Source: an uncultured Anaerolinea sp. (GTDB taxonomy: Bacteria > Chloroflexota > Anaerolineae > Anaerolineales > UBA4823). From it: DNA of 64,000 nt. A model generated the notes under the pieces. The model had not been told where the DNA came from, made no database searches, and saw only the letters and a list, made by a program, of their open reading frames with translations. Made by a program: the position numbers and the translations under genes. This document shows positions 12,881 to 60,690 of the stretch, piece after piece. How positions within the stretch are numbered: the stretch's first letter is position 1; every line of letters begins with the position of its first letter. The stretch is taken from contig CAZHFU010000001.1 of NCBI GenBank assembly GCA_964531975.1, positions 11,051-75,050 of the forward strand, given 5' to 3'.

Positions 12881-15319
12881 TTACGGGCGCGGTTTAAGCG
12901 TCAGCAGATGCCTGGTATGCTTGTGCACAGATTGGCGGGAGAACAGCATGGGGTGATAGCCGGCTTTAAACCAGGCTGAAACCTGATCGTCATAATGATG
13001 ACTGGCCGGGTTGCCGGATTGCCCTGGGGCGAGCAAGCTCAGGGAGGCGTCCCAGTCGCTCAGGTCAATCAACATGCGGTAGGGAGGGCCAACCACCTGG
13101 TCATCGGAAAGTTTGTAGTAACTGCCGCCCGTGGCCCACACGGTGGTGTGATCGCCGCCCAGGGGGAATGGGCCGCGGTTAAAGATGGCCGCCATGAGCG
13201 GGCTGCTGGCTAAGGCATGGCGAAACACCAGGCGGTGCAGTCGCCCCCAGGCCCACTGGCGCCTGTCTTTGCCCAAGCGTTTGGTTAAAACGGCCAGGGC
13301 GTCTCTCAGCGCCGAACGGATGAGATCGTCGCGCTGAGGGTGATTGGGTAAGTGATTTAAGACCCATGGCAGCCAGATTTCCCCATACCAGCTTTTCTCG
13401 GCCAGCACCGGGGTTGGGCCGGCGCCCATCAGGCGTTCTAATAAGGTGGGTGAGCGCGGGCCAGGCTGATCTTTTGAGCGGCGAACCAGGCGGTTGTCAT
13501 CCCCCAAATGCTGGCCCATCATGCGCCAGGCCAACCGGCGAATAAAGGCCTGGTAAAGGGCGGCGGCGGCGCTGTCGGCGTTTAACTGGCCGTCCCACTC
13601 TTTGAGCATCCGCACCGCTGCGTGGATTTCCGTTTCGGGGTTTTGCACTTTGTAATCCAGCGGCAGCTGCCCCACCAGGCGCGCCATTACGCGCGCAGAC
13701 GGGGAAAGCAGGTCGAACTGCATGCGCTGCATAAAAGCCAGGTCGATTTTTTCGCTGCCATTGCGCAGGCTGGGGTCGAGGATCATTTCGGAGATGCGCT
13801 GGGCGCGGTCGCCGCTGATGGGTTCAAGCTCAATCGGTAAGGGGTAATCGTCGGCGAAGGCGCGGTTGTTGGCGCTGGCGATGTAGCCCTGTGGGGGGTC
13901 GATCTGATGGGGCAGGCTGTCGTAAAGGAAGTAGCCCAGCCATTCATATTCTTCTGTCCACCCCGGCGCGGGCAAGCGGCCGTGGCCGCCGGCGCGCAGC
14001 GGCAGTTTGCCGGGAAAGGTGTAGGCAATGTGGCCTTGCACATCGGCATAGACCACGTTCTGGGTGGGGCAGGTCCAGGTCTCTAGGGCTTGATGGAATT
14101 CGCTCACGCTGCGGGCGCGCAGCAAGGCAAACACGCCCTGCGCCATGGTGTCTGGCTCGAGGGCGGTCCAGCGCAGCGCCAGGGGTTGTTCGCCGGCTGC
14201 ATCTGGGGCCAGGTTGTTGATGATGGGGCCATGACGGGTGATCACCACTTCCTCAACCGCATCGGGGCGGCCTTTGACGTGGATGACTTCCTTGAGCGTG
14301 ATGCCCGGCAGCCAGCGACCGTTAACTTCCATTTCGACGCCGCCGGTGGGGGTGCGGCGCAAGTGTTCGATGTAGAGGTCTTGAACATCGGGAAAGCCGT
14401 TGGTGAAACCCCAGGCTACATACTGGTTATGACCGGCGATGACGCCGGGCAAGCCGGGAAAGATGACGCCGGTGACGTCGATCTCGGCGGCGCTTAAATG
14501 ATTCTCGTACCATATGGCCGGGGCGCTGAGGCCAAGGTGCATATCGTTGGCAAGCAGGGGTTTGCCGGTGACGCTGCGTTCGCCGCTAATTACCCAGTTA
14601 TTGCTTCCCAGGCCTTCATAGGGCGATGGTCCGGTGAAGGGGCGCGCCCGTTGGGCGCGCTGCAGCGCGGCAGGCCCATCTACGCCGTAATCGCTGCCAG
14701 GCGGAACCACAAAGGGCCAGCGCGGCAGGTCTTGGTTCTCTAGCTCGGCGGCGGCTTCGGGGCCAAGATTTTCGAGCAGCTGCTGCCGCAGCAGCTCGGC
14801 TTCCCAGTTCACCGACAGGCTCCAGGCCATCATCTTAACCCAGGCCAGTGAATCGGCGATGACCCAGGGCTGTGGGCGATAGCGCAGCAAGGCGCATTCT
14901 ACCGGCATTCGCCCGGCAGCCATGAAGGCGTTGACGCCGTTGGCGTAGGCCTGGAAAAAAGCATGGCCTTCTTGGTTAAGCAGAGCAACTTCGGCTTCGG
15001 CCACGCGTCGGATGGTGAGGGTGCGCATCCAGCGATCAAGCTGAAGAGAAGCCGGCCCCAAAATCTCCGACAGGCGGCCCGCGGCCAGGCGGCGGTTAAA
15101 GTCCATTTGAAACAGGCGATCTTGGGCATGCACGAAACCCTGGGCGAAAAAGAGATCGGGCAGGTTTTCGGCGCTAATATGCGGAACGCCCCAGGCATCG
15201 CGGCGCACTTCCACGGGTTGGTGTAAGCCTGCCAGGGTAATTTGCCCGGAAAGCTTGGGCAGGCGCGCCCTGGCGACCATGCGCCCTAACGGTTTGAGCA
15301 GCCACGAGCTTTTGACCAT
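12881..15319 (-). CDS. penicillin/AHL acylase family Ntn-hydrolase
   Basis: 812 aa with an N-terminal hydrophobic segment. The autoprocessing site context is GLGSNNWVISG (nucleophile Ser). Size and layout are typical of the alpha-spacer-beta precursor. Confidence 0.88.
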   Translation of the reverse strand: MVKSSWLLKPLGRMVARARLPKLSGQITLAGLHQPVEVRRDAWGVPHISAENLPDLFFAQGFVHAQDRLFQMDFNRRLAAGRLSEILGPASLQLDRWMRTLTIRRVAEAEVALLNQEGHAFFQAYANGVNAFMAAGRMPVECALLRYRPQPWVIADSLAWVKMMAWSLSVNWEAELLRQQLLENLGPEAAAELENQDLPRWPFVVPPGSDYGVDGPAALQRAQRARPFTGPSPYEGLGSNNWVISGERSVTGKPLLANDMHLGLSAPAIWYENHLSAAEIDVTGVIFPGLPGVIAGHNQYVAWGFTNGFPDVQDLYIEHLRRTPTGGVEMEVNGRWLPGITLKEVIHVKGRPDAVEEVVITRHGPIINNLAPDAAGEQPLALRWTALEPDTMAQGVFALLRARSVSEFHQALETWTCPTQNVVYADVQGHIAYTFPGKLPLRAGGHGRLPAPGWTEEYEWLGYFLYDSLPHQIDPPQGYIASANNRAFADDYPLPIELEPISGDRAQRISEMILDPSLRNGSEKIDLAFMQRMQFDLLSPSARVMARLVGQLPLDYKVQNPETEIHAAVRMLKEWDGQLNADSAAAALYQAFIRRLAWRMMGQHLGDDNRLVRRSKDQPGPRSPTLLERLMGAGPTPVLAEKSWYGEIWLPWVLNHLPNHPQRDDLIRSALRDALAVLTKRLGKDRRQWAWGRLHRLVFRHALASSPLMAAIFNRGPFPLGGDHTTVWATGGSYYKLSDDQVVGPPYRMLIDLSDWDASLSLLAPGQSGNPASHHYDDQVSAWFKAGYHPMLFSRQSVHKHTRHLLTLKPRP

Positions 15320-15412
15320 GGATTAATTCCTGTTGAGATGCCTGGTTGGGGCCAAAATGCACCAGGGTGCTTAGACGGTCGCCCATCTAAACACCCTGGT
15401 AAAAACAACACC

Positions 15413-16057
15413 TTAATCGCCGATAGATTGACTCTTGGCGCGTTCTTTAAGCCCATAGCGATTGACATTCCGTCCAATGCCGCGGCGTTTGGCGTCATTT
15501 TCGGTTTGCATGGCGCGGGCTGCGGCTTTGCGTTCTTGGATTAACTTGTCGATGCGCCGCTGAAGATATGGAGTGAAATGACCTTTGTAACGCTCCCATA
15601 GCTCGGGTCGTTTCCAATCATCACCAGTGATCCGAATGCGACACTTGGGTGAGCCGCATTCACACTCGAACTCGTCGTAATCGGTGCCATCCGTCATGGC
15701 ATAATCAAAGCAGACCTGTTCGCCCGGCTGAATATCGCGCAAGGCGTTGAGGCAAATTTGACCGACGATCCCAGCATTGGGGTCACAGGAGTGGTTAAAA
15801 CAATCCGCCGGACCAACTTCCCGGGGAACCAGGTACAGGCCTTCTTCGACCTGTACACTCAAACTGCGCATTTTATCGGGCTGCTGCATGAACGTTTCGT
15901 GCGTCATGACATCGCCGCCCCAACAAGTGAGCAGTTCACCGGCCTTGACAAATGCGCGGGCGTAAACGCCATCACCTTCAGGGCCGAGGCGCGTCTCCAG
16001 CTTGGGAGAGAGGTAGTGCGTTAGGCGTGTGTTCACTTCATATGGGTTCCTTATCAT
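15413..16057 (-). CDS. SET-domain protein (putative lysine methyltransferase)
   Basis: 214 aa. It has the SET core motif NHSCDPN, a later FDYAM motif, a post-SET-like Cys cluster CECGSPKC, and a basic C-terminal tail. Confidence 0.8.
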   Translation of the reverse strand: MIRNPYEVNTRLTHYLSPKLETRLGPEGDGVYARAFVKAGELLTCWGGDVMTHETFMQQPDKMRSLSVQVEEGLYLVPREVGPADCFNHSCDPNAGIVGQICLNALRDIQPGEQVCFDYAMTDGTDYDEFECECGSPKCRIRITGDDWKRPELWERYKGHFTPYLQRRIDKLIQERKAAARAMQTENDAKRRGIGRNVNRYGLKERAKSQSIGD

Positions 16058-16435
16058 GGGGGTGAAAGAATGGATAGGTAAACAAACCGATCAACGATTA
16101 TACCTCCAAACAAACCGGAAATGCGATAAATCGAGCTTAAATTTTTCATCTTGACCAATGTCCTCGATGGTGTTAAAGTAAGCCTGCGTGACGATATAGA
16201 ATGAGAAGGTGGTGGTGGCATGGATGCCGGCTTAAGGCGTCGGAAAGAGACGCACAAAATTAAGCGAACTGGTTCTGAAGGTTTGGCGCACAACCCATGG
16301 GGTGCGGCGTGCATCATGTCCCCTTCTCCCCAGGAGCGGCGTTTGCGGGGTTAAATCTGCCTTCCCGTCCTTAAGGGCGCACAGCGCCATACAGGGGTTT
16401 TATGACGCCTGACTGCGTTACCCTCACGCCAGTTC

Positions 16436-16476
16436 GCTGCCGGTTATAGGTTTAACCTGGCGGCTTTTTTGTTTTT
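16436..16476 (+). terminator. Rho-independent terminator/attenuator in the leader of the Mg-transport gene pair
   Basis: 8-bp stem: GCTGCCGG (16436-16443) pairs with CCTGGCGGC (16457-16464), including G-U pairs. It is followed directly by TTTTTTGTTTTT (16465-16476) and sits ~40 nt upstream of the ATG at 16514. An alternative pairing uses CGCCAG (16427-16432) with CTGGCG (16457-16462). Confidence 0.6.
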
Positions 16477-16513
16477 ATCTCGGGCGGCAAGATCGATGGA
16501 TGGAGGTGCAGCG

Positions 16514-17764
16514 ATGGCGTTTCTAAGCGAGCTTCTGGGGCGTCCGGTTACGGATAGCGATGGCAGGATGGTTGGCAAGCTGCAGGATGTGGCGGCGCGC
16601 TCTCTGGAGACGATGCCGCACCCGGTGGTGCAGGCGATTGTGATTGACGGCGACCATCAGCGGTTAACTGTGCCCTACAGCCAGGTGGCGGCGCTGCTTT
16701 CTAAAGCGGTGCCTTTGAAGTCGCCAATCGACGGGCTGGAAGCTTACCAACCAGTGGATGGGGATATATTCCTGGTAAGGGATGTATTAGATAAACAGAT
16801 TATCGATACTGATGGGGCGCGCGTGGTACGGGTGAACGATCTGGAATTGCTGCGCGTGAATGGATCGGTGCTCATTAGCAATGTGGATGTGGGGATGACC
16901 GGCATTTTGCGGCGCCTGGGCATGGGTCGCCTGGCAAACATTTTCGGTCGGCGCTTTGAAAGCGCGGTGAGTTATATCTCGTGGGATGATATGGAGCTGC
17001 TGCCACAAGACAGCGCTCTGCAGCTGCGCGTACCGGCCAAGAAAATTCGCGACCTGCACCCGGCGGATGTGGCTGAGATTATTTCAGACTTGAACCGTAT
17101 GCAGGGCATGAAGCTGCTGGAGTCTTTCGATGTGAAGCAGTTGGCCGACGCCCTGGAAGAGGTGGAGCCTGAATTCCAGGCCAACCTGATTGAGAACATG
17201 GATGATGAGCGCGTGGCCGATATGTTGGAAGAGATGGACCCCGACGACGCCGCCGATCTGCTGGCCGAGCTGGACCCGGAGCGCTCGCAGGATTTGCTGG
17301 AGCTGATGGAGGCGGACGAGGCGGAAGACGTGCGCAAGCTGCTTTCGTACGATGAGGACACGGCCGGTGGGTTAATGACCACCGAGTTCGCCGCAATTCC
17401 ACCGGGTCTTACTACTGCCGAGGCCATACAGCATCTGCGCGAACACGCCGACGAAGCCGAGACGATCTTTTATGTTTATGTGATCGACGTGCTGGAGCAT
17501 TTGGTCGGGGTGTGTTCTCTATCCAACCTGGTGCTGGCTGCCCCCGATACACCGGTGGCGGAAATTATGAAAACCAATGTGGTTTCGGTGGAGTTAGACG
17601 CCAGACAGGATGAGGTGGCGCAGCTTATCTCTAAGTACAATCTCCTGGCGGTTCCAGTGGTGGATAATCACCACCGCTTACATGGCATTGTCACCTCTGA
17701 AGACGCCCTGGATAAAATCATCCCCACGGCATGGAAGAAGCGCCTGCCGCGCTTTTATCGTTAG
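16514..17764 (+). CDS. soluble MgtE-N / CBS-pair protein with N-terminal PRC-barrel-like repeats (no membrane pore domain)
   Basis: The acidic MgtE intracellular N-domain (DVAEIISDL...DDERVADMLEEMDPDDAADLLAELDPERSQDLLELM) is followed by a CBS pair. The protein ends at ...KKRLPRFYR with no TM helices. N-terminus: LLGRPVTDSDGRMVGKLQDV. I moved the start to ATG 16514, which has a GGAGG RBS 7 nt upstream; the track uses TTG 16469. Confidence 0.85.
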   Translation: MAFLSELLGRPVTDSDGRMVGKLQDVAARSLETMPHPVVQAIVIDGDHQRLTVPYSQVAALLSKAVPLKSPIDGLEAYQPVDGDIFLVRDVLDKQIIDTDGARVVRVNDLELLRVNGSVLISNVDVGMTGILRRLGMGRLANIFGRRFESAVSYISWDDMELLPQDSALQLRVPAKKIRDLHPADVAEIISDLNRMQGMKLLESFDVKQLADALEEVEPEFQANLIENMDDERVADMLEEMDPDDAADLLAELDPERSQDLLELMEADEAEDVRKLLSYDEDTAGGLMTTEFAAIPPGLTTAEAIQHLREHADEAETIFYVYVIDVLEHLVGVCSLSNLVLAAPDTPVAEIMKTNVVSVELDARQDEVAQLISKYNLLAVPVVDNHHRLHGIVTSEDALDKIIPTAWKKRLPRFYR

Positions 17765-17787
17765 CTTATTGCAGGAGGCGACAACTT

Positions 17788-19089
17788 ATGCAGCCCGTTT
17801 CGTCTTATCCTGGGCGCTCGCCGCGCCGACCGCGCTCCGCATACTCTAATATCCTGCGCAAGCTGGCGCTGTTCTTAACCGTGTTTGGCCCGGCGACAAT
17901 TACCGCCATGGCCGATAACGACGCGGGCGGGGTGGCGACTTATTCGATCGCCGGGGCGGCGCTGGGCTACCCAATATTATTCCTGCTCCTACCGATAACC
18001 ATTCTCCTGGCGATCACCCAAGAGATGGGCATGCGCTTGACGGTGGTCACGCGGCGCGGCCTGGCCGATCTGATTCGCGAGCGTTTTGGGCTGCGCGTGT
18101 CGGTGTTTATTTTTGGCTGCTTGCTGCTGGCGAATATGGGCACGCTGGTTACGGAGCTTTCGGCGGTAAAGACCACCAGTGCTCTGCTTAACATCCCGGC
18201 TGTGCCGGCAGTGTTGGCGATTGTGCTGATTTCCTTTTTGTTCATCACCCGCGGCAGCTATAAGCTTACCCAGAATATTATGCTGCTTTCGAGCATCTTC
18301 TACATCTCGTATATCATCTCGGCGGTCAAGGCGCGGCCCGATTGGGGGATGGCGCTGGGCAATATTTTTTATCCCCACGGCGTGGTATTTGACCAACAAT
18401 ATATGCTCCAATATCTTTTGATCGGGATGGGAGTGCTGGGCACTACTATTACGCCATGGGGGCAGTTTTTTGTGAGCAGCTTTGCTTACGACAAGAATAT
18501 TGACAAGAGCAAGATTTTCTTCGCGCAGATGGAGACGTATTGGGGGGCGTTTCTGACCGACTTCTTCTCATTCTTTATGATTATCGCGACTGCATCCACG
18601 CTCTTTGTGCATTCCATCCTGCTGGTTTCAGGGGAGCAGGCGGCGTTAGCCATCCAACCGTTCGCGGGGCGGCTGGCGGGCGAGTTGTTCGCCCTGGGTA
18701 TTCTTAACGCCGGTTTCATGGGGTTGGTGGTGGTTTCGCTCACCGGAGCATACGCCTTTGCCGAGTTCTTCGGACTTTCGGGCAGTCTTAACGCCACCTT
18801 TGGCGAGAGTAAAACCTTCTACTTGCTGTTTATTATCCAACTGGTGATTGCCACGGCGATTAGTTTGTTTCCGGGCGTCACCCTATTTAAGTTAGCCGTG
18901 GCAACGCAAACCCTGAATGCGATGATGCTGCCATTTGTGTTTTATTATTTGATTAAGCTCACCAGTGACAAGGAATTAATGGGCGGGTATGCCAACAACC
19001 GCTTTCAGAGGTATTTTGCGGTGATTTGCACCGTGGTCATTTTATTGGCTTCGGGCTTCACCCTGGCAGTTACGTTCTGGCCCAGGTAG
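17788..19089 (+). CDS. NRAMP/SLC11-family transporter with non-canonical metal-site residues (NRMT-like, candidate Mg2+ transporter)
   Basis: 433 aa from ATG 17788, with an AGGAGG RBS 9 nt upstream. It has ~11 TM segments. The TM1 motif is DNDAGGV where canonical NRAMPs have DPGN. The TM6 motif is GTTITPWGQ where canonical NRAMPs have GAxIMPHN. Confidence 0.8.
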   Translation: MQPVSSYPGRSPRRPRSAYSNILRKLALFLTVFGPATITAMADNDAGGVATYSIAGAALGYPILFLLLPITILLAITQEMGMRLTVVTRRGLADLIRERFGLRVSVFIFGCLLLANMGTLVTELSAVKTTSALLNIPAVPAVLAIVLISFLFITRGSYKLTQNIMLLSSIFYISYIISAVKARPDWGMALGNIFYPHGVVFDQQYMLQYLLIGMGVLGTTITPWGQFFVSSFAYDKNIDKSKIFFAQMETYWGAFLTDFFSFFMIIATASTLFVHSILLVSGEQAALAIQPFAGRLAGELFALGILNAGFMGLVVVSLTGAYAFAEFFGLSGSLNATFGESKTFYLLFIIQLVIATAISLFPGVTLFKLAVATQTLNAMMLPFVFYYLIKLTSDKELMGGYANNRFQRYFAVICTVVILLASGFTLAVTFWPR

Positions 19090-19185: not shown

Positions 19186-20436
19186 TTACACAAGGGTGCG
19201 CAGCTTCGGGGCTTTGAGCAGCAATCCTAAGGCGAAGAACACCAGCACCGTCCCGCCGACTTGCAGGGCGGCGGGTTCGTTAATGTATTCCGCCAACCAA
19301 CCGATCAGGAGCGAACCCAGCGGCATAAAACTAAAAAAGGTCAAGCTGTACAGGCTGGAGACGCGCCCGCGCAATTCTTCTACTACGCTGGTTTGGATCA
19401 GCGAATTAGACAAATTATTAATCATCACGATAGCCACACCGATACCGGCCAAGAATATGAGGGAAAGGGGTAAACGCCGTGCAAAGGAGAAGGCCAGCAG
19501 CAGCAGTGGGAATGATAGGGTTCCCAGGGTGAGAATTTTCCCCCGGCTGCTGCTGCGCCCCATAGATGCAATCGCCAGCGCTCCCACCAGCGCCCCCACG
19601 CCCTGGCCGGAGCGCAGCAGTCCGTTTGTGGTCACATCCCCTTTTAGCACATCCACCGCCCAGGCCGGCAGCAGCGATTGAAAGGAATAGCCAAAGATGC
19701 TCATGCAAGCCATGATGATGAGCAGCAACAGGACGGTATGATTGCTGTGGATGACATAATCGATGCCCTGGCGAATATCTTTGAGCGCCGAACGGCCTTG
19801 CGACAGGCGTCCTGGTGTGGTGCGAGCGGGGAGCTTCATCAGCGCCAGCGCCAGGATGACGGCCAGAAAAGACACCCCATTGACCACAAAACACCAGGCG
19901 GGGCCAACCCAGGCATACAATAAGCCAGCGATGGTTGGGCCAATGATAGTGGCCAGGTTAAACATAGCGGAATTGAGGGCGATGGCGTTGGTAAGGTCTT
20001 CGGGCGAGACGAGTTCTGGCGCAAGAGACAGGCGGGCGGGCGCATCGAAGGCATTCACCACGCCCAGCACTGCCGAAAGCACTAAGATGTGCCAGGGCTG
20101 TACCAGGTTGGTAAACACCAGCCCGGCTAATATGAAAGCCAACACCAGCATAGCCACCTGGGTGACCAACATCAGCTTGCGCCGCGGCACACGATCGGCA
20201 ACGACCCCACCATACAACATGAGAATGCTGGGCACACCGGCCACAAAGCTGACATAGCCCAGGTAGGCGGGCGATTTGGTTAATTCGTAGATCAGAAAGC
20301 CTTGGGCGGTGTTCTGCATCCAGGTTCCGAACAATGAGACCACCTGACCGATAAACCACAGCCGGTAATTGGGGTGGCGCAGCGCTGCAAAGGTTTGCCC
20401 CATCCGAGATGATGCGGGCCGGGTTGAGATTGACAT
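19186..20436 (-). CDS. MFS transporter (12-TMS)
   Basis: 416 aa and hydrophobic throughout. The loop motif VADRVPRRKLM follows TM2. Confidence 0.85.
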   Translation of the reverse strand: MSISTRPASSRMGQTFAALRHPNYRLWFIGQVVSLFGTWMQNTAQGFLIYELTKSPAYLGYVSFVAGVPSILMLYGGVVADRVPRRKLMLVTQVAMLVLAFILAGLVFTNLVQPWHILVLSAVLGVVNAFDAPARLSLAPELVSPEDLTNAIALNSAMFNLATIIGPTIAGLLYAWVGPAWCFVVNGVSFLAVILALALMKLPARTTPGRLSQGRSALKDIRQGIDYVIHSNHTVLLLLIIMACMSIFGYSFQSLLPAWAVDVLKGDVTTNGLLRSGQGVGALVGALAIASMGRSSSRGKILTLGTLSFPLLLLAFSFARRLPLSLIFLAGIGVAIVMINNLSNSLIQTSVVEELRGRVSSLYSLTFFSFMPLGSLLIGWLAEYINEPAALQVGGTVLVFFALGLLLKAPKLRTLV

Positions 20437-20515
20437 TGGGCCAATTATACGCTTTTATCGGCGTTCACAGCCCGCGGCAAGGCGAAATACGAATATTCTT
20501 ATTCCACCAGGCTTT

Positions 20516-21982
20516 TCAATTGACGAGAACCGCCTGCGGTTTCTTTACCTGGGTGAGCGCCAGGGTGGAAAGCAAGAATAAGGCTGCGTAGATGCCGAAG
20601 ATCAGGGCGTAGCCGAGGCCGGGCAGCTGCGGAGCGACGCGAGTGAAGTGATCGGCGATGGGGCCGCCCAGGTAAGCGCCGCCTGCGCCGGCGCCTGCGC
20701 CGGCCAGATTGGCGATGCCCAGGTAACGCCCGGCTTGCCCTGGTTTAACTAATTCTGTGCCTAAAGCCCAGTTGGCGGTGTAAAAGGCCCCGGTGGCAAC
20801 GCCCACGAACGCGCCGGCCACGTATACCATGGTGAGGTTGGTTGACAAAGCCAATAGCACGCCACCGATGGCGGCTACCAGCCCACTGATGGCAGCCACC
20901 GGCTTACGTCCGATGCGGTCGCACAGCCGTCCAGACAGCGGTGCGGTGATGAGAATTAGCCCGCCGATAACGATAAACAAGTTCGCCACTGCCCCCGCCG
21001 CTGAAGTTTTGCTTAACCCCAGGCGGCCTTGTAAGAAGTAGATCGCAAAACTGGGGATATTGGTGGCTCCGACCAAAAAGGCCAGCCGGTTTATCACCCA
21101 CCAGACGAAAGATGAATTGCGGCGCGCTTCTTCGCCTAACGCCAACCCGGCCCCGGCTAAGACCCCCAGAATTACGGCCGCCGCCATCGCCGCCAGGCCG
21201 GCCAGTCCCATGCCCCACAGCGCCAGGCTAGAGCCGGCTCCGGCGGGGAACAGGCTGCTCAGCCGGCGCACCGCTTCTCCCAGGCCGAGGATAATGAGGG
21301 TGAAGGCGGCGGTCATCAGCGCCAGGCGGGCCAGGGGAGCAAAGTCCAGCGGGGCGGGTTTGTCTTCGAGCTGCTTTTCGGGCGCAAACATTGTAATCAG
21401 CATGGTGGTCAGCAGCACGGCGATGAGCACCCCAATCGCCGGCCAGAAATGTCCACCGGCGATTAGTTTACCGATAGTGAGCGATGTGAATATGAATGGA
21501 ATGGGCACTTCTAAGACGGCCTTGATAGACGAGAACAGCCCGCGCTTGTTTTCGGGAACCAGGTCTGGAATCAGGCCCTGCTGCGCCCCATGGGCGGTGT
21601 TGGAGGTAACCATCATTAAAATGAGCAGGCTGAATAAGGTCCAGTAACCCACGTCGCCTTGCAGGTTAGAGGTCAGGCCAATTGCGATCACCACCACCAC
21701 CGTCGCCAGTGTTCCGGCCATGATGAAGGGACGGCGGCGGCCCCAGGGCAGGCGGCTGCGATCTGAGAGCATGCCCATCATGGCTTGCATAAGCAGGGCG
21801 GTCATCAACGTCCATAAACGGATGGCCCCGTAGGCGCTAGCCTGGCGCTGCTCGCCCACGAACTGCTGCACCAGCAGCGGAACCACCAGGGGCGTCATCG
21901 TTTGGGAGAGGGTGGACAGGCCGGTATAATAAATGTTGATGATGATGGTATCGAACCCACGCAGAGGGCGGCTAGTTAGCAT
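20516..21982 (-). CDS. MFS transporter
   Basis: 488 aa, polytopic, with the loop motif LSDRSRLPWGRRRPF. The substrate is unknown; it has a glycoside/cation-symporter-like flavour. Confidence 0.8.
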   Translation of the reverse strand: MLTSRPLRGFDTIIINIYYTGLSTLSQTMTPLVVPLLVQQFVGEQRQASAYGAIRLWTLMTALLMQAMMGMLSDRSRLPWGRRRPFIMAGTLATVVVVIAIGLTSNLQGDVGYWTLFSLLILMMVTSNTAHGAQQGLIPDLVPENKRGLFSSIKAVLEVPIPFIFTSLTIGKLIAGGHFWPAIGVLIAVLLTTMLITMFAPEKQLEDKPAPLDFAPLARLALMTAAFTLIILGLGEAVRRLSSLFPAGAGSSLALWGMGLAGLAAMAAAVILGVLAGAGLALGEEARRNSSFVWWVINRLAFLVGATNIPSFAIYFLQGRLGLSKTSAAGAVANLFIVIGGLILITAPLSGRLCDRIGRKPVAAISGLVAAIGGVLLALSTNLTMVYVAGAFVGVATGAFYTANWALGTELVKPGQAGRYLGIANLAGAGAGAGGAYLGGPIADHFTRVAPQLPGLGYALIFGIYAALFLLSTLALTQVKKPQAVLVN

Positions 21983-60617: not shown

Positions 60618-60690
60618 GGTAGGCGATGGGGCTCGAACCCACAACCCTCGCATCCACAGTGCGATGCTCTGCCATTGAGCTACGCCCACC
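60618..60690 (-). tRNA. tRNA-His (anticodon GUG) with genome-encoded G(-1)
   Basis: The reverse complement folds as G(-1), acceptor GTGGGCG/CGCCTAC, D arm GCTC/GAGC, anticodon stem TCGCA/TGCGA with loop CTGTGGA, T arm GTGGG/CCCAT with TTCGAGC, and discriminator C pairing with G(-1). The 3' CCA is not fully encoded. Confidence 0.92.

Follow-up and report, generated by a model that had tools for sequence, protein, structure and literature searches.

The 64,000-nucleotide stretch of an uncultured Anaerolinea sp. analysed here (contig CAZHFU010000001.1, positions 11,051 to 75,050; the window in what follows) carries two adjacent genes and, in front of them, a leader. Gene 1 encodes a soluble protein related to the cytosolic part of MgtE, gene 2 encodes an NRAMP-related transporter of the NRMT type, and the leader holds a small upstream open reading frame (uORF) and a terminator hairpin. 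Judged from its sequence, this is an Anaerolineae (Chloroflexota) example of the known 'MgtE-fragment + NrmT' operon with two genes. While the gene pair is already known, the uORF attenuator seems to be the one apparently undescribed feature of the locus. The searchable literature yielded no account of an M-box with a leader ORF behind it, nor of this uORF attenuator, and the module matches no family in Rfam 15, which makes it the part worth pursuing.

The uORF (16206..16354, on the forward strand like all features of the operon and its leader) has an SD-like (Shine-Dalgarno-like) sequence AAGGTGG at 16206-16212, an ATG at 16220 and 44 codons (MDAGLRRRKETHKIKRTGSEGLAHNPWGAACIMSPSPQERRLRG) ending in a stop codon at 16352-16354. 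A consensus scan places a putative promoter-like site at 16151..16179 (TTGACC, 17 nt, TG-TAAAGT), and the TTGACC box and the spacing are kept in an alignment with the syntenic loci L142 and L143. From this site the leader transcript would start about 30 nt before the uORF, which agrees with the absence of an M-box in the window. By blastn the window leader has no nucleotide similarity above chance to any of 80 related loci, and its homology surfaced solely through the uORF start motif and through structure. That motif, AAGGAGGTG-N5-[ATG/GTG/TTG] GAC GCN GAT, is present at 34 loci in genomes and at about 50 in metagenomes. At the 34 loci the uORF of the relatives has a strong SD and an ATG, GTG or TTG start, and continues as M/V/L-D-A-D-(G/S/H); the window uORF matches them in position and start context. 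When the start was searched for with a strict regular expression, all 27 matches in 933 kb fell on the plus strand and within a leader.

Several features suggest that the uORF is translated. In 32/34 leaders no stop codon interrupts its frame for at least 32 codons, compared with 12/34 and 4/34 for the other two frames. Within the leaders of group A, codons 2-9 (V-D-A-D-G-I-P-L; 31 distinct leaders) vary mainly at the third position, with entropies by codon position of 2.3, 3.1 and 6.0 bits, and the codons used include every synonym for Ala and Pro and several for each of Gly, Ile and Leu. A second, unrelated uORF, MQLEE[TS]G.SKDVPPLS... with 50-63 codons, occupies the leader in seven loci (L021:4379-4640, L024, L027, L030, L034, L038, L049). 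Its last codons and stop (GAG GUA CCA GAC UGA) lie on the strand GGUACCAG, which pairs with the terminator 5' arm CUGGUACC. Two unrelated uORFs wired to a terminator ahead of the same operon argue for translation-coupled attenuation.

That the small ORF is instead the gene of a free-standing small protein, with the hairpin merely its terminator and gene 1 served by its own promoter, is highly improbable. Such a gene would be in keeping with a strong SD and a terminator downstream, and with the stop codon that lies inside the hairpin in some relatives. Across the groups, however, only the first 4-8 residues are conserved, whereas length (32-67 codons) and the spacing between stop and hairpin vary freely; the peptide matched no family in a Pfam search, and the interior of the ORF is constrained as RNA that pairs with the terminator flank. 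In addition, the approximately 38 nt from the U-tract to gene 1 contain no promoter-like site in the consensus scan. A seeming C-terminal motif of the peptide, 'NAAFC*', was rejected as coding, as its frame differs between leaders and it corresponds to the 5' arm of the terminator.

This terminator, T2 (16436..16476), consists of a stem-loop at 16436-16464 (GCUGCCGGUUA...UAACCUGGCGGC) and the U-tract TTTTTTGTTTTT at 16465-16476. The hairpin, which the preliminary description had already noticed from its stem and T-run, has a predicted energy of -15.7 to -17.1 kcal/mol (-17.1 in its local context) and lies 38 nt upstream of the gene 1 ATG. It is conserved: a GC-rich hairpin followed by a T-run lies between uORF and gene 1 in all 34 uORF-bearing leaders, and in the group A alignment (A3) 98% of its cells are paired, with 3 compensatory pairs. 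A custom search for a hairpin followed by a T-run was used here, as the consensus terminator scan, with a loop limit of 3-8 nt, overlooked T2 for that reason.

The likely competitor of T2 is a long-range helix that reaches back into the uORF. Its 5' strand (16263..16273, AGCGAACUGGU) lies within uORF codons 15-18, and its 3' strand (16428..16438, GCCAGUUCGCU) overlaps the base of the T2 stem by 3 nt (16436-16438); the 11 bp give a duplex of -21.2 kcal/mol. The preliminary description had also proposed a mutually exclusive pairing, located at 16427-16432. The short pairing of CGCCAG (16428-33) with CUGGCG, even when forced, is worth no more than -1.3 kcal/mol, and it was rejected as the competitor in favour of the helix to 16263-16273. 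The window, L143 and L002 all retain the helix, and two double substitutions separate the window from L143, L002 and L142: A16263-U16438 in the window is G-C in the others, and U16270-A16431 is C-G.

The sequence that pairs best with the terminator's 5' flank and arm lies, in every leader, in the uORF interior, mostly from codons 11-16. The pairing sequences themselves are lineage-specific (GGCAGAAAG/CUUCUGCC; GGCGAAG/CUUCGCC; GAGCGAAA/UUUCGCUC; GACGAAGG/CCUUCGUC; CUCCGAAG/CUUCGGAG). Across 68 distinct leaders, the duplex between uORF nucleotides 25-75 and the 5' side of the terminator averages -22.5 kcal/mol, compared with -13.6 for an upstream window, -13.7 for a downstream window and -15.5 for the reversed target (Wilcoxon p 1e-12, 4e-10 and 3e-11, respectively). 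Against mononucleotide shuffles the best-duplex energy stands out weakly (mean z -1.0), and the positional control windows and column-wise pair counts were more informative than such z-scores. In alignment A3, 82% of the antiterminator cells are paired (92% in the core) compared with 34-58% when the strands are slid; 12 pairs change on both sides, and 0/500 shuffles match the observed values. Covariation in orthologous leaders, which the preliminary description had put forward as a way of judging the hairpin, is thus seen for the antiterminator and the terminator alike, and the covariation between lineages together with the slid controls is sturdier evidence for the antiterminator than the p values. 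In group A, the antiterminator wholly overlaps the 5' arm of the terminator, so that the two use the same nucleotides and are mutually exclusive.

A third helix appears in group A by RNAalifold, in which the SD and start codon of the uORF pair with a uORF segment 55-145 nt downstream through covarying pairs. Over 75 leaders this SD-sequestering duplex averages -26.1 kcal/mol; with the start region shuffled or reversed the averages are -20.2 and -20.1, respectively (p ~1e-12). Together with the further conserved hairpins that group A has between the two antiterminator strands, this helix could point to a structured RNA of the riboswitch kind that senses a ligand or ion, in which the uORF would be incidental and its SD and start region simply one strand of a helix. 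We regard this as quite unlikely: the start codon alternates between ATG, GTG and TTG, the uORF frame stays open with codons 2-9 varying chiefly at wobble positions, a second leader family carries a different and equally conserved peptide, and the leader matches no Rfam family. The two readings are also compatible, as a helix that sequesters the SD can gate uORF translation. As a separate observation, a copy of the terminator 5' arm (e.g. GCCUCC, CCGCCAU) follows right after the T-run in many relatives, among them L047:4663-4706, L071, L029, L023 and L044. Its recurrence hints at an added translational switch, in which the copy may pair with the 3' arm of the terminator or with the GGAGG of gene 1. 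In the window, GGGCGGC stands in its place.

The link of this leader to Mg2+ comes through the M-box (RF00380, ykoK leader). The window itself has no riboswitch at the Rfam gathering threshold over its 64 kb; at E<=10 the region 16050-16560 gave no M-box, Mg_sensor or other riboswitch and only two chance-level matches, to a viral pseudoknot and a snoRNA, and nhmmer with six Rfam-confirmed M-boxes found no match in the window. Of the two options raised in the preliminary description, a leader attenuator or a riboswitch, the conserved hairpin therefore fits the former as part of an attenuator, while the latter was not borne out. Among relatives, by comparison, Rfam identified M-boxes in 6/13 loci scanned (124-134 bits; L003, L007, L011, L023, L047 and L050; e.g. 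L011:4260-4427). The profile of these six M-boxes found M-boxes in 29/80 loci, 26 of them 283-537 nt upstream of gene 1. The uORF and its terminator sit between the M-box terminator (CCUCC...GGAGG) and gene 1 in these relatives, so that an M-box precedes the same uORF module in at least 26 related genomes, whereas the window keeps uORF and terminator only. An M-box is likewise absent from L001, L019, L035, L037, L039, L043, L142 and L143. Based on this distribution, the M-box evidently appeared or disappeared repeatedly, with the uORF module retained throughout.

The same arrangement extends to other genes. In L048 an M-box, a first terminator, a uORF (MDSDSHS...) and a second terminator precede a full-length mgtE. 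When metagenome contigs were scanned for exact matches to the uORF start pattern, 61 loci (L081-L141) came up; some 50 of them are genuine leaders, nearly all with an M-box 100-300 nt upstream. The genes that follow are mostly the pair of a PRC-MgtE_N-CBS protein and an NRMT, with a full-length MgtE in L101; other classes are a DGTA-type paralogous NRMT alone (L110, L115) and a CBS-only partner with the paralogue (L100). This paralogous NRMT (L110:750-2018, L115:7812-9080, L100:6655-7923) has 422 amino acids, is about 33% identical to gene 2 and reads VADNDAGG / GTTIAPW as in EleNRMT, the Eggerthella lenta transporter. An M-box and a uORF (MDADAHS...) also lie ahead of a 751-aa two-module FtsX-like ABC (ATP-binding cassette) permease in L121:3221-5476, L108 and L112, which is no obvious Mg2+ transporter.

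Gene 1 (16502..17764) begins behind the SD GGAGG (16502-16506) with an ATG at 16514, a start that is backed by the pattern AGGAGGTG-N-ATG kept in orthologues, and its coding sequence (16514-17764) specifies 416 amino acids. The predicted layout is a PRC-like part (1-~125), MgtE_N (181-282), a CBS pair (~287-402) and a basic tail, IIPTAWKKRLPRFYR (402-416). In Pfam, MgtE_N matches residues 181-282 at 7e-27 and the two CBS domains match at 5e-18; the PRC match at residues 3-26 barely passes (24.5 bits versus a cut-off of 21.2), and a second PRC-like half at ~84-125 is a weak match (E 0.11). The AlphaFold2 (AF2) model (mean predicted local distance difference test, pLDDT, 81.7) has beta-rich modules at 11-68 and 95-125. 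The closest sequence in the PDB is the cytosolic domain of Thermus thermophilus MgtE (TtMgtE; 2yvy, 4.5e-41, query 175-402; see also 2YVX; Hattori 2007; Maruyama 2018, PMC5882242), which has the same N + CBS fold and on which the model superposes with a template modelling (TM) score of 0.86 and a root-mean-square deviation of 1.7 A. A hydrophobicity scan detected no transmembrane helix, its sole peak (318-341) being the CBS beta core, and the chain ends 14 residues past CBS2. The preliminary description of gene 1 as a protein with PRC-like repeats, MgtE_N and a CBS pair that ends before any transmembrane helix is in agreement with these results. Unlike MgtE, gene 1 has no plug helix or transmembrane pore, carries extra N-terminal PRC-like modules and ends in a basic rather than an acidic C-terminus.

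Without plug helix and pore, the Mg2, Mg3 and Mg6 sites of MgtE are impossible in gene 1. The interdomain ligands of TtMgtE, D91/D247 for Mg4, D226/D250 for Mg5 and E59 for Mg7 (PMC5882242), map in the 2yvy alignment onto D244/D397, N376/D400 and D212 of gene 1. Across 33 gene 1 homologues D244, D397 and D400 never vary and D212 hardly ever does, while position 376, the equivalent of TtMgtE D226, is N in the window and D in most homologues. As far as this alignment indicates, gene 1 retains the acidic residues of the MgtE N-CBS Mg2+ sites, in line with the resemblance to the MgtE Mg2+ sensor proposed in the preliminary description. The C-terminal tail IIPTAWKKRLPRFYR, encoded at 17717-17761, is invariant and basic where MgtE has an acidic plug helix. 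In the metagenomic locus L100, the 171-aa CBS-only partner of the paralogous NRMT (L100:6056-6571) ends with the same tail (IIPVDWKKRLPRFYR). As even this short partner shares it, the tail is a candidate contact, and gene 1 may touch the transporter through it. The partner, often equipped with PRC-barrel modules, would thus carry a candidate docking peptide in its invariant basic tail.

Gene 2 (17773..19089) follows after a spacer of 23 nt, counted from the gene 1 stop (TAG, 17762-17764) to the gene 2 ATG at 17788; its SD is AGGAGG at 17773-17778 and its coding sequence (17788-19089) specifies 433 amino acids. The protein covers the whole Pfam Nramp profile (PF01566, 6.8e-67) and has 11 hydrophobic segments, so that spacer, SD and an NRAMP fold with 11 transmembrane (TM) helices were all correctly given at the outset; the motifs MADNDAGG in TM1 (17908-17931) and GTTITPW in TM6 (18439-18459) also read as stated there. 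The closest solved relative is EleNRMT (7QIA, with 7QIC, 7QJI and 7QJJ; PMC8806188) at 1.9e-61 and 211 bits over residues 24-417, compared with 86 bits (2e-23) for the runner-up in the PDB and 38-54 bits for MntH/DMT entries (MntH ~1e-13). The NCBIfam MntH models score far under their cut-offs. By these scores, gene 2 belongs to the NRMT clade and not to canonical MntH.

In EleNRMT the Mg2+ site combines the helix 1 Asp, Asn changed to Gly, Ala to Thr, Met to a small residue, a helix 10 Gln and the loss of the TM6b histidines (PMC8806188); the changes of N to G, A to T and M to A were given correctly in the preliminary description. Gene 2 has the signature D45/G48/T219/T222/Q374, and W224 stands where canonical NRAMPs have the TM6b His; D45 and G48 align to EleNRMT D55 and G58, and all six residues are invariant in 30 relatives. 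Thus gene 2 shares with EleNRMT the TM1 Asp, Gly for Asn, Thr for Ala in TM6, Trp for the TM6b His and the TM10 Gln. The two differ at the Met position, which is Ala227 in EleNRMT and Thr222 in gene 2 (GTTIAPWMM versus GTTITPWGQ; DGTAQ versus DGTTQ). Among 86 diverse transporter representatives, selected after searching 1.84 billion cluster representatives and then aligned, 18 have DGTTQ, 18 the EleNRMT type DGTAQ and 13 DGTSQ. With Thr, Ala and Ser alternating at about equal frequency at the former Met position across the NRMT clade, the Thr of gene 2 is an ordinary clade variant. Read from these residues, the widened all-oxygen site is of a type expected to let hydrated Mg2+ (and Mn2+) through with no coupling to protons.

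The two genes belong together in most relatives. At 80 loci, one genome per species, which were fetched by transporter alignment and in which gene 1 homologues were placed by tblastn, the partner lies directly upstream of the transporter on the same strand in 70; 9 have no partner and 1 is uninformative. At 65 loci the tblastn match takes in the PRC-like N-terminal part from residue 1-3 onward. Paired loci include metagenome-assembled genomes of Patescibacteria, Omnitrophota and 'Gammaproteobacteria' in which the transporter is merely 40-45% identical. Partnerless transporters include L028, L063, L069, L074 and L026, the last with an M-box directly upstream of the transporter. The co-occurrence of the pair that the preliminary description had sought across genomes is thus widespread, but its view of the pairing as undescribed did not hold. 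According to Shin et al. 2014 (PLoS Genet; PMC4072509), the majority of NrmT genes sit after a gene for the MgtE cytoplasmic domain, Clostridium acetobutylicum NrmT proteins rescued a Mg2+-transport-deficient Bacillus subtilis and an mgtE-fragment/nrmT operon is under M-box control; these authors speculated that the partner provides cytoplasmic feedback regulation. The central inference of the preliminary description, a detached MgtE sensor that regulates an NRAMP-type Mg2+ transporter, is therefore an already published hypothesis.

The operons of Shin et al. (Ca_c0685; Acp2976/2977) have the same order as the window, a soluble MgtE-like gene and then an NRAMP-related transporter with altered TM1 and TM6, and the M-box control of relatives and the proposed feedback-sensor role of the partner are alike as well. 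The window differs in its partner of 416 amino acids with about 175 N-terminal residues of PRC-barrel-like modules; PRC domains and Chloroflexi are both without mention in that paper. In having no M-box the window resembles the operon of Acidobacterium capsulatum, and its uORF attenuator is not part of the 2014 description. The partnership is now seen in Chloroflexota and Patescibacteria, and beyond that the pair adds little to the literature. The question of the partner's role nevertheless dates from 2014, and pairs as abundant and well conserved as these are suited to testing it.

Given clade membership, the essential Thr and the M-box control of orthologues, gene 2 probably imports Mg2+. 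Alternatively, the pair could be an uptake system for Mn2+ (a transition metal), in which the transporter imports chiefly Mn2+ and the partner senses Mn2+ or a nucleotide instead of Mg2+. The M-box-less, partnered NrmT of A. capsulatum fully rescued a Mn2+ uptake mutant and a Mg2+ mutant only weakly (PMC4072509), EleNRMT transports Mn2+ too (PMC8806188), the window has no M-box, and the CBS pairs of MgtE are reported to bind ATP (PMC5529423). This alternative is nonetheless unlikely for the window. Orthologues that are 69-72% identical and have the same DGTTQ site lie behind M-boxes, the uORF leader type of the window also precedes canonical mgtE, T219, whose equivalent in EleNRMT is needed for Mg2+ and not for Mn2+ (PMC8806188), is invariant, and gene 1 keeps the Mg2+ ligands found between the N and CBS domains of MgtE.

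Taken together, the locus is probably best read as an NRMT operon with an MgtE-type sensor partner and, instead of an M-box, a uORF-dependent attenuator. On this reading, the promoter about 30 nt upstream would drive the 44-codon uORF, and the attenuator rather than an M-box would gate transcription. Pairing of 16263-16273 with the 5' flank and base of the terminator (16428-16438) would prevent termination. Our best guess is that ribosomes moving through uORF codons ~11-20 would melt the antiterminator, so that the terminator forms and the operon is switched off, whereas a failure of uORF translation would let the antiterminator form and switch it on. Low Mg2+ could destabilise ribosomes on the acidic, small-residue N-terminus of the uORF, much as in Escherichia coli MgtL (MEPDP...), where N-termini rich in D, E and P and in small residues abort translation more at low Mg2+ (bioRxiv 10.1101/2021.02.02.429294); the Mg2+ dependence of the Anaerolineae leader is an inference. 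At the protein level, gene 1 would most likely close on cytosolic Mg2+ and throttle the transporter, perhaps docked on it through the basic C-terminal tail.

A number of observations weigh against this reading. The leader sequences are related, so that the p values given above overstate independence. In the window, antiterminator and terminator have only 3 nt in common, even though the helix itself covaries, and forced folds of the two states are near iso-energetic (-108.2 versus -106.7 kcal/mol). The bottom pairs of T2 abut the U-tract and their loss should weaken termination; still, the switch in the window looks less clean than that of group A. The SD-sequestering helix of the window (-20.5 kcal/mol) is indistinguishable from shuffled sequences (-21.4), and the same applies to L001. 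The window uORF is divergent, reading MDAG with the second Asp lost (D4 = G), while the N-termini in its nearest relatives are VDAG, VDAD and VEAG. Across leaders the uORF stop lies anywhere from 98 nt upstream of the terminator to beyond it, and with so variable a position the direction of the switch is unreadable from sequence. In L142:1660-1700 and L143:1640-1690 the hairpin is kept and is followed by GAUCCUAUUUU and GAUUGUGUUAUUU, respectively, a poor U-tract; termination there may be weak, or the hairpin may have another purpose. Finally, the preference of the A. capsulatum pair for Mn2+ is a caveat on substrate that applies to the M-box-less copy in the window, and co-expression of the A. 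capsulatum partner left rescue unchanged (PMC4072509).

The nearest known counterpart of the leader is enterobacterial mgtL (Park 2010; Chadani 2017). In each, a Mg2+ transporter gene is preceded by a leader with a short acidic or proline-rich uORF, the RNA alternatives overlap the uORF, and a Mg2+-sensing RNA is combined with it. Their peptides are unrelated in sequence (MEPDP... in mgtL, M/V-D-A-D-G-I-P-L or MQLEE..DVPP here), and the Anaerolineae leaders differ in having intrinsic instead of Rho-dependent termination, an M-box instead of the mgtA leader and a uORF of 32-67 codons; a Mg2+ response of these leaders is presumed. A more specific proposal can be made, which we hold to be possible yet somewhat short of probable. 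In this proposal the leader would be an undescribed composite cis-regulator of Anaerolineae, in which the acidic uORF peptide reports Mg2+ through the stability or progress of the ribosome and is wired to transcription through the SD helix, the antiterminator and the terminator. It would usually act in series with an M-box and, in the window, alone.

If so, evolution would have converged on an mgtL-like solution in a distant phylum, and the composite leader would be a natural two-checkpoint device of the form 'riboswitch AND leader peptide'. The module of uORF, antiterminator and terminator precedes NRMT operons, canonical mgtE and an ABC permease, and in most cases an M-box lies shortly before it. 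Should it respond to Mg2+, it would provide a second, translation-based Mg2+ checkpoint outside enterobacteria, and a tractable system in which to ask why cells stack two sensors on one transporter.

The surroundings of the operon are conserved in the closest relatives. L142-L144 share with the window the order of a penicillin amidase, a SET-domain gene, the leader, the partner, the transporter and MFS_3. In the window, a penicillin-amidase-family gene and the gene of a 214-aa SET-domain protein occupy 12881-16057 on the reverse strand, the latter divergent from the leader, and two MFS transporter genes (MFS_3 and MFS_1; 19186-21982, reverse strand) are convergent with gene 2. A tRNA gene at 60618-60689 (reverse strand) is the sole Rfam match at gathering level in the window. 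The bacterial SET-domain protein beside the leader is mildly unusual.

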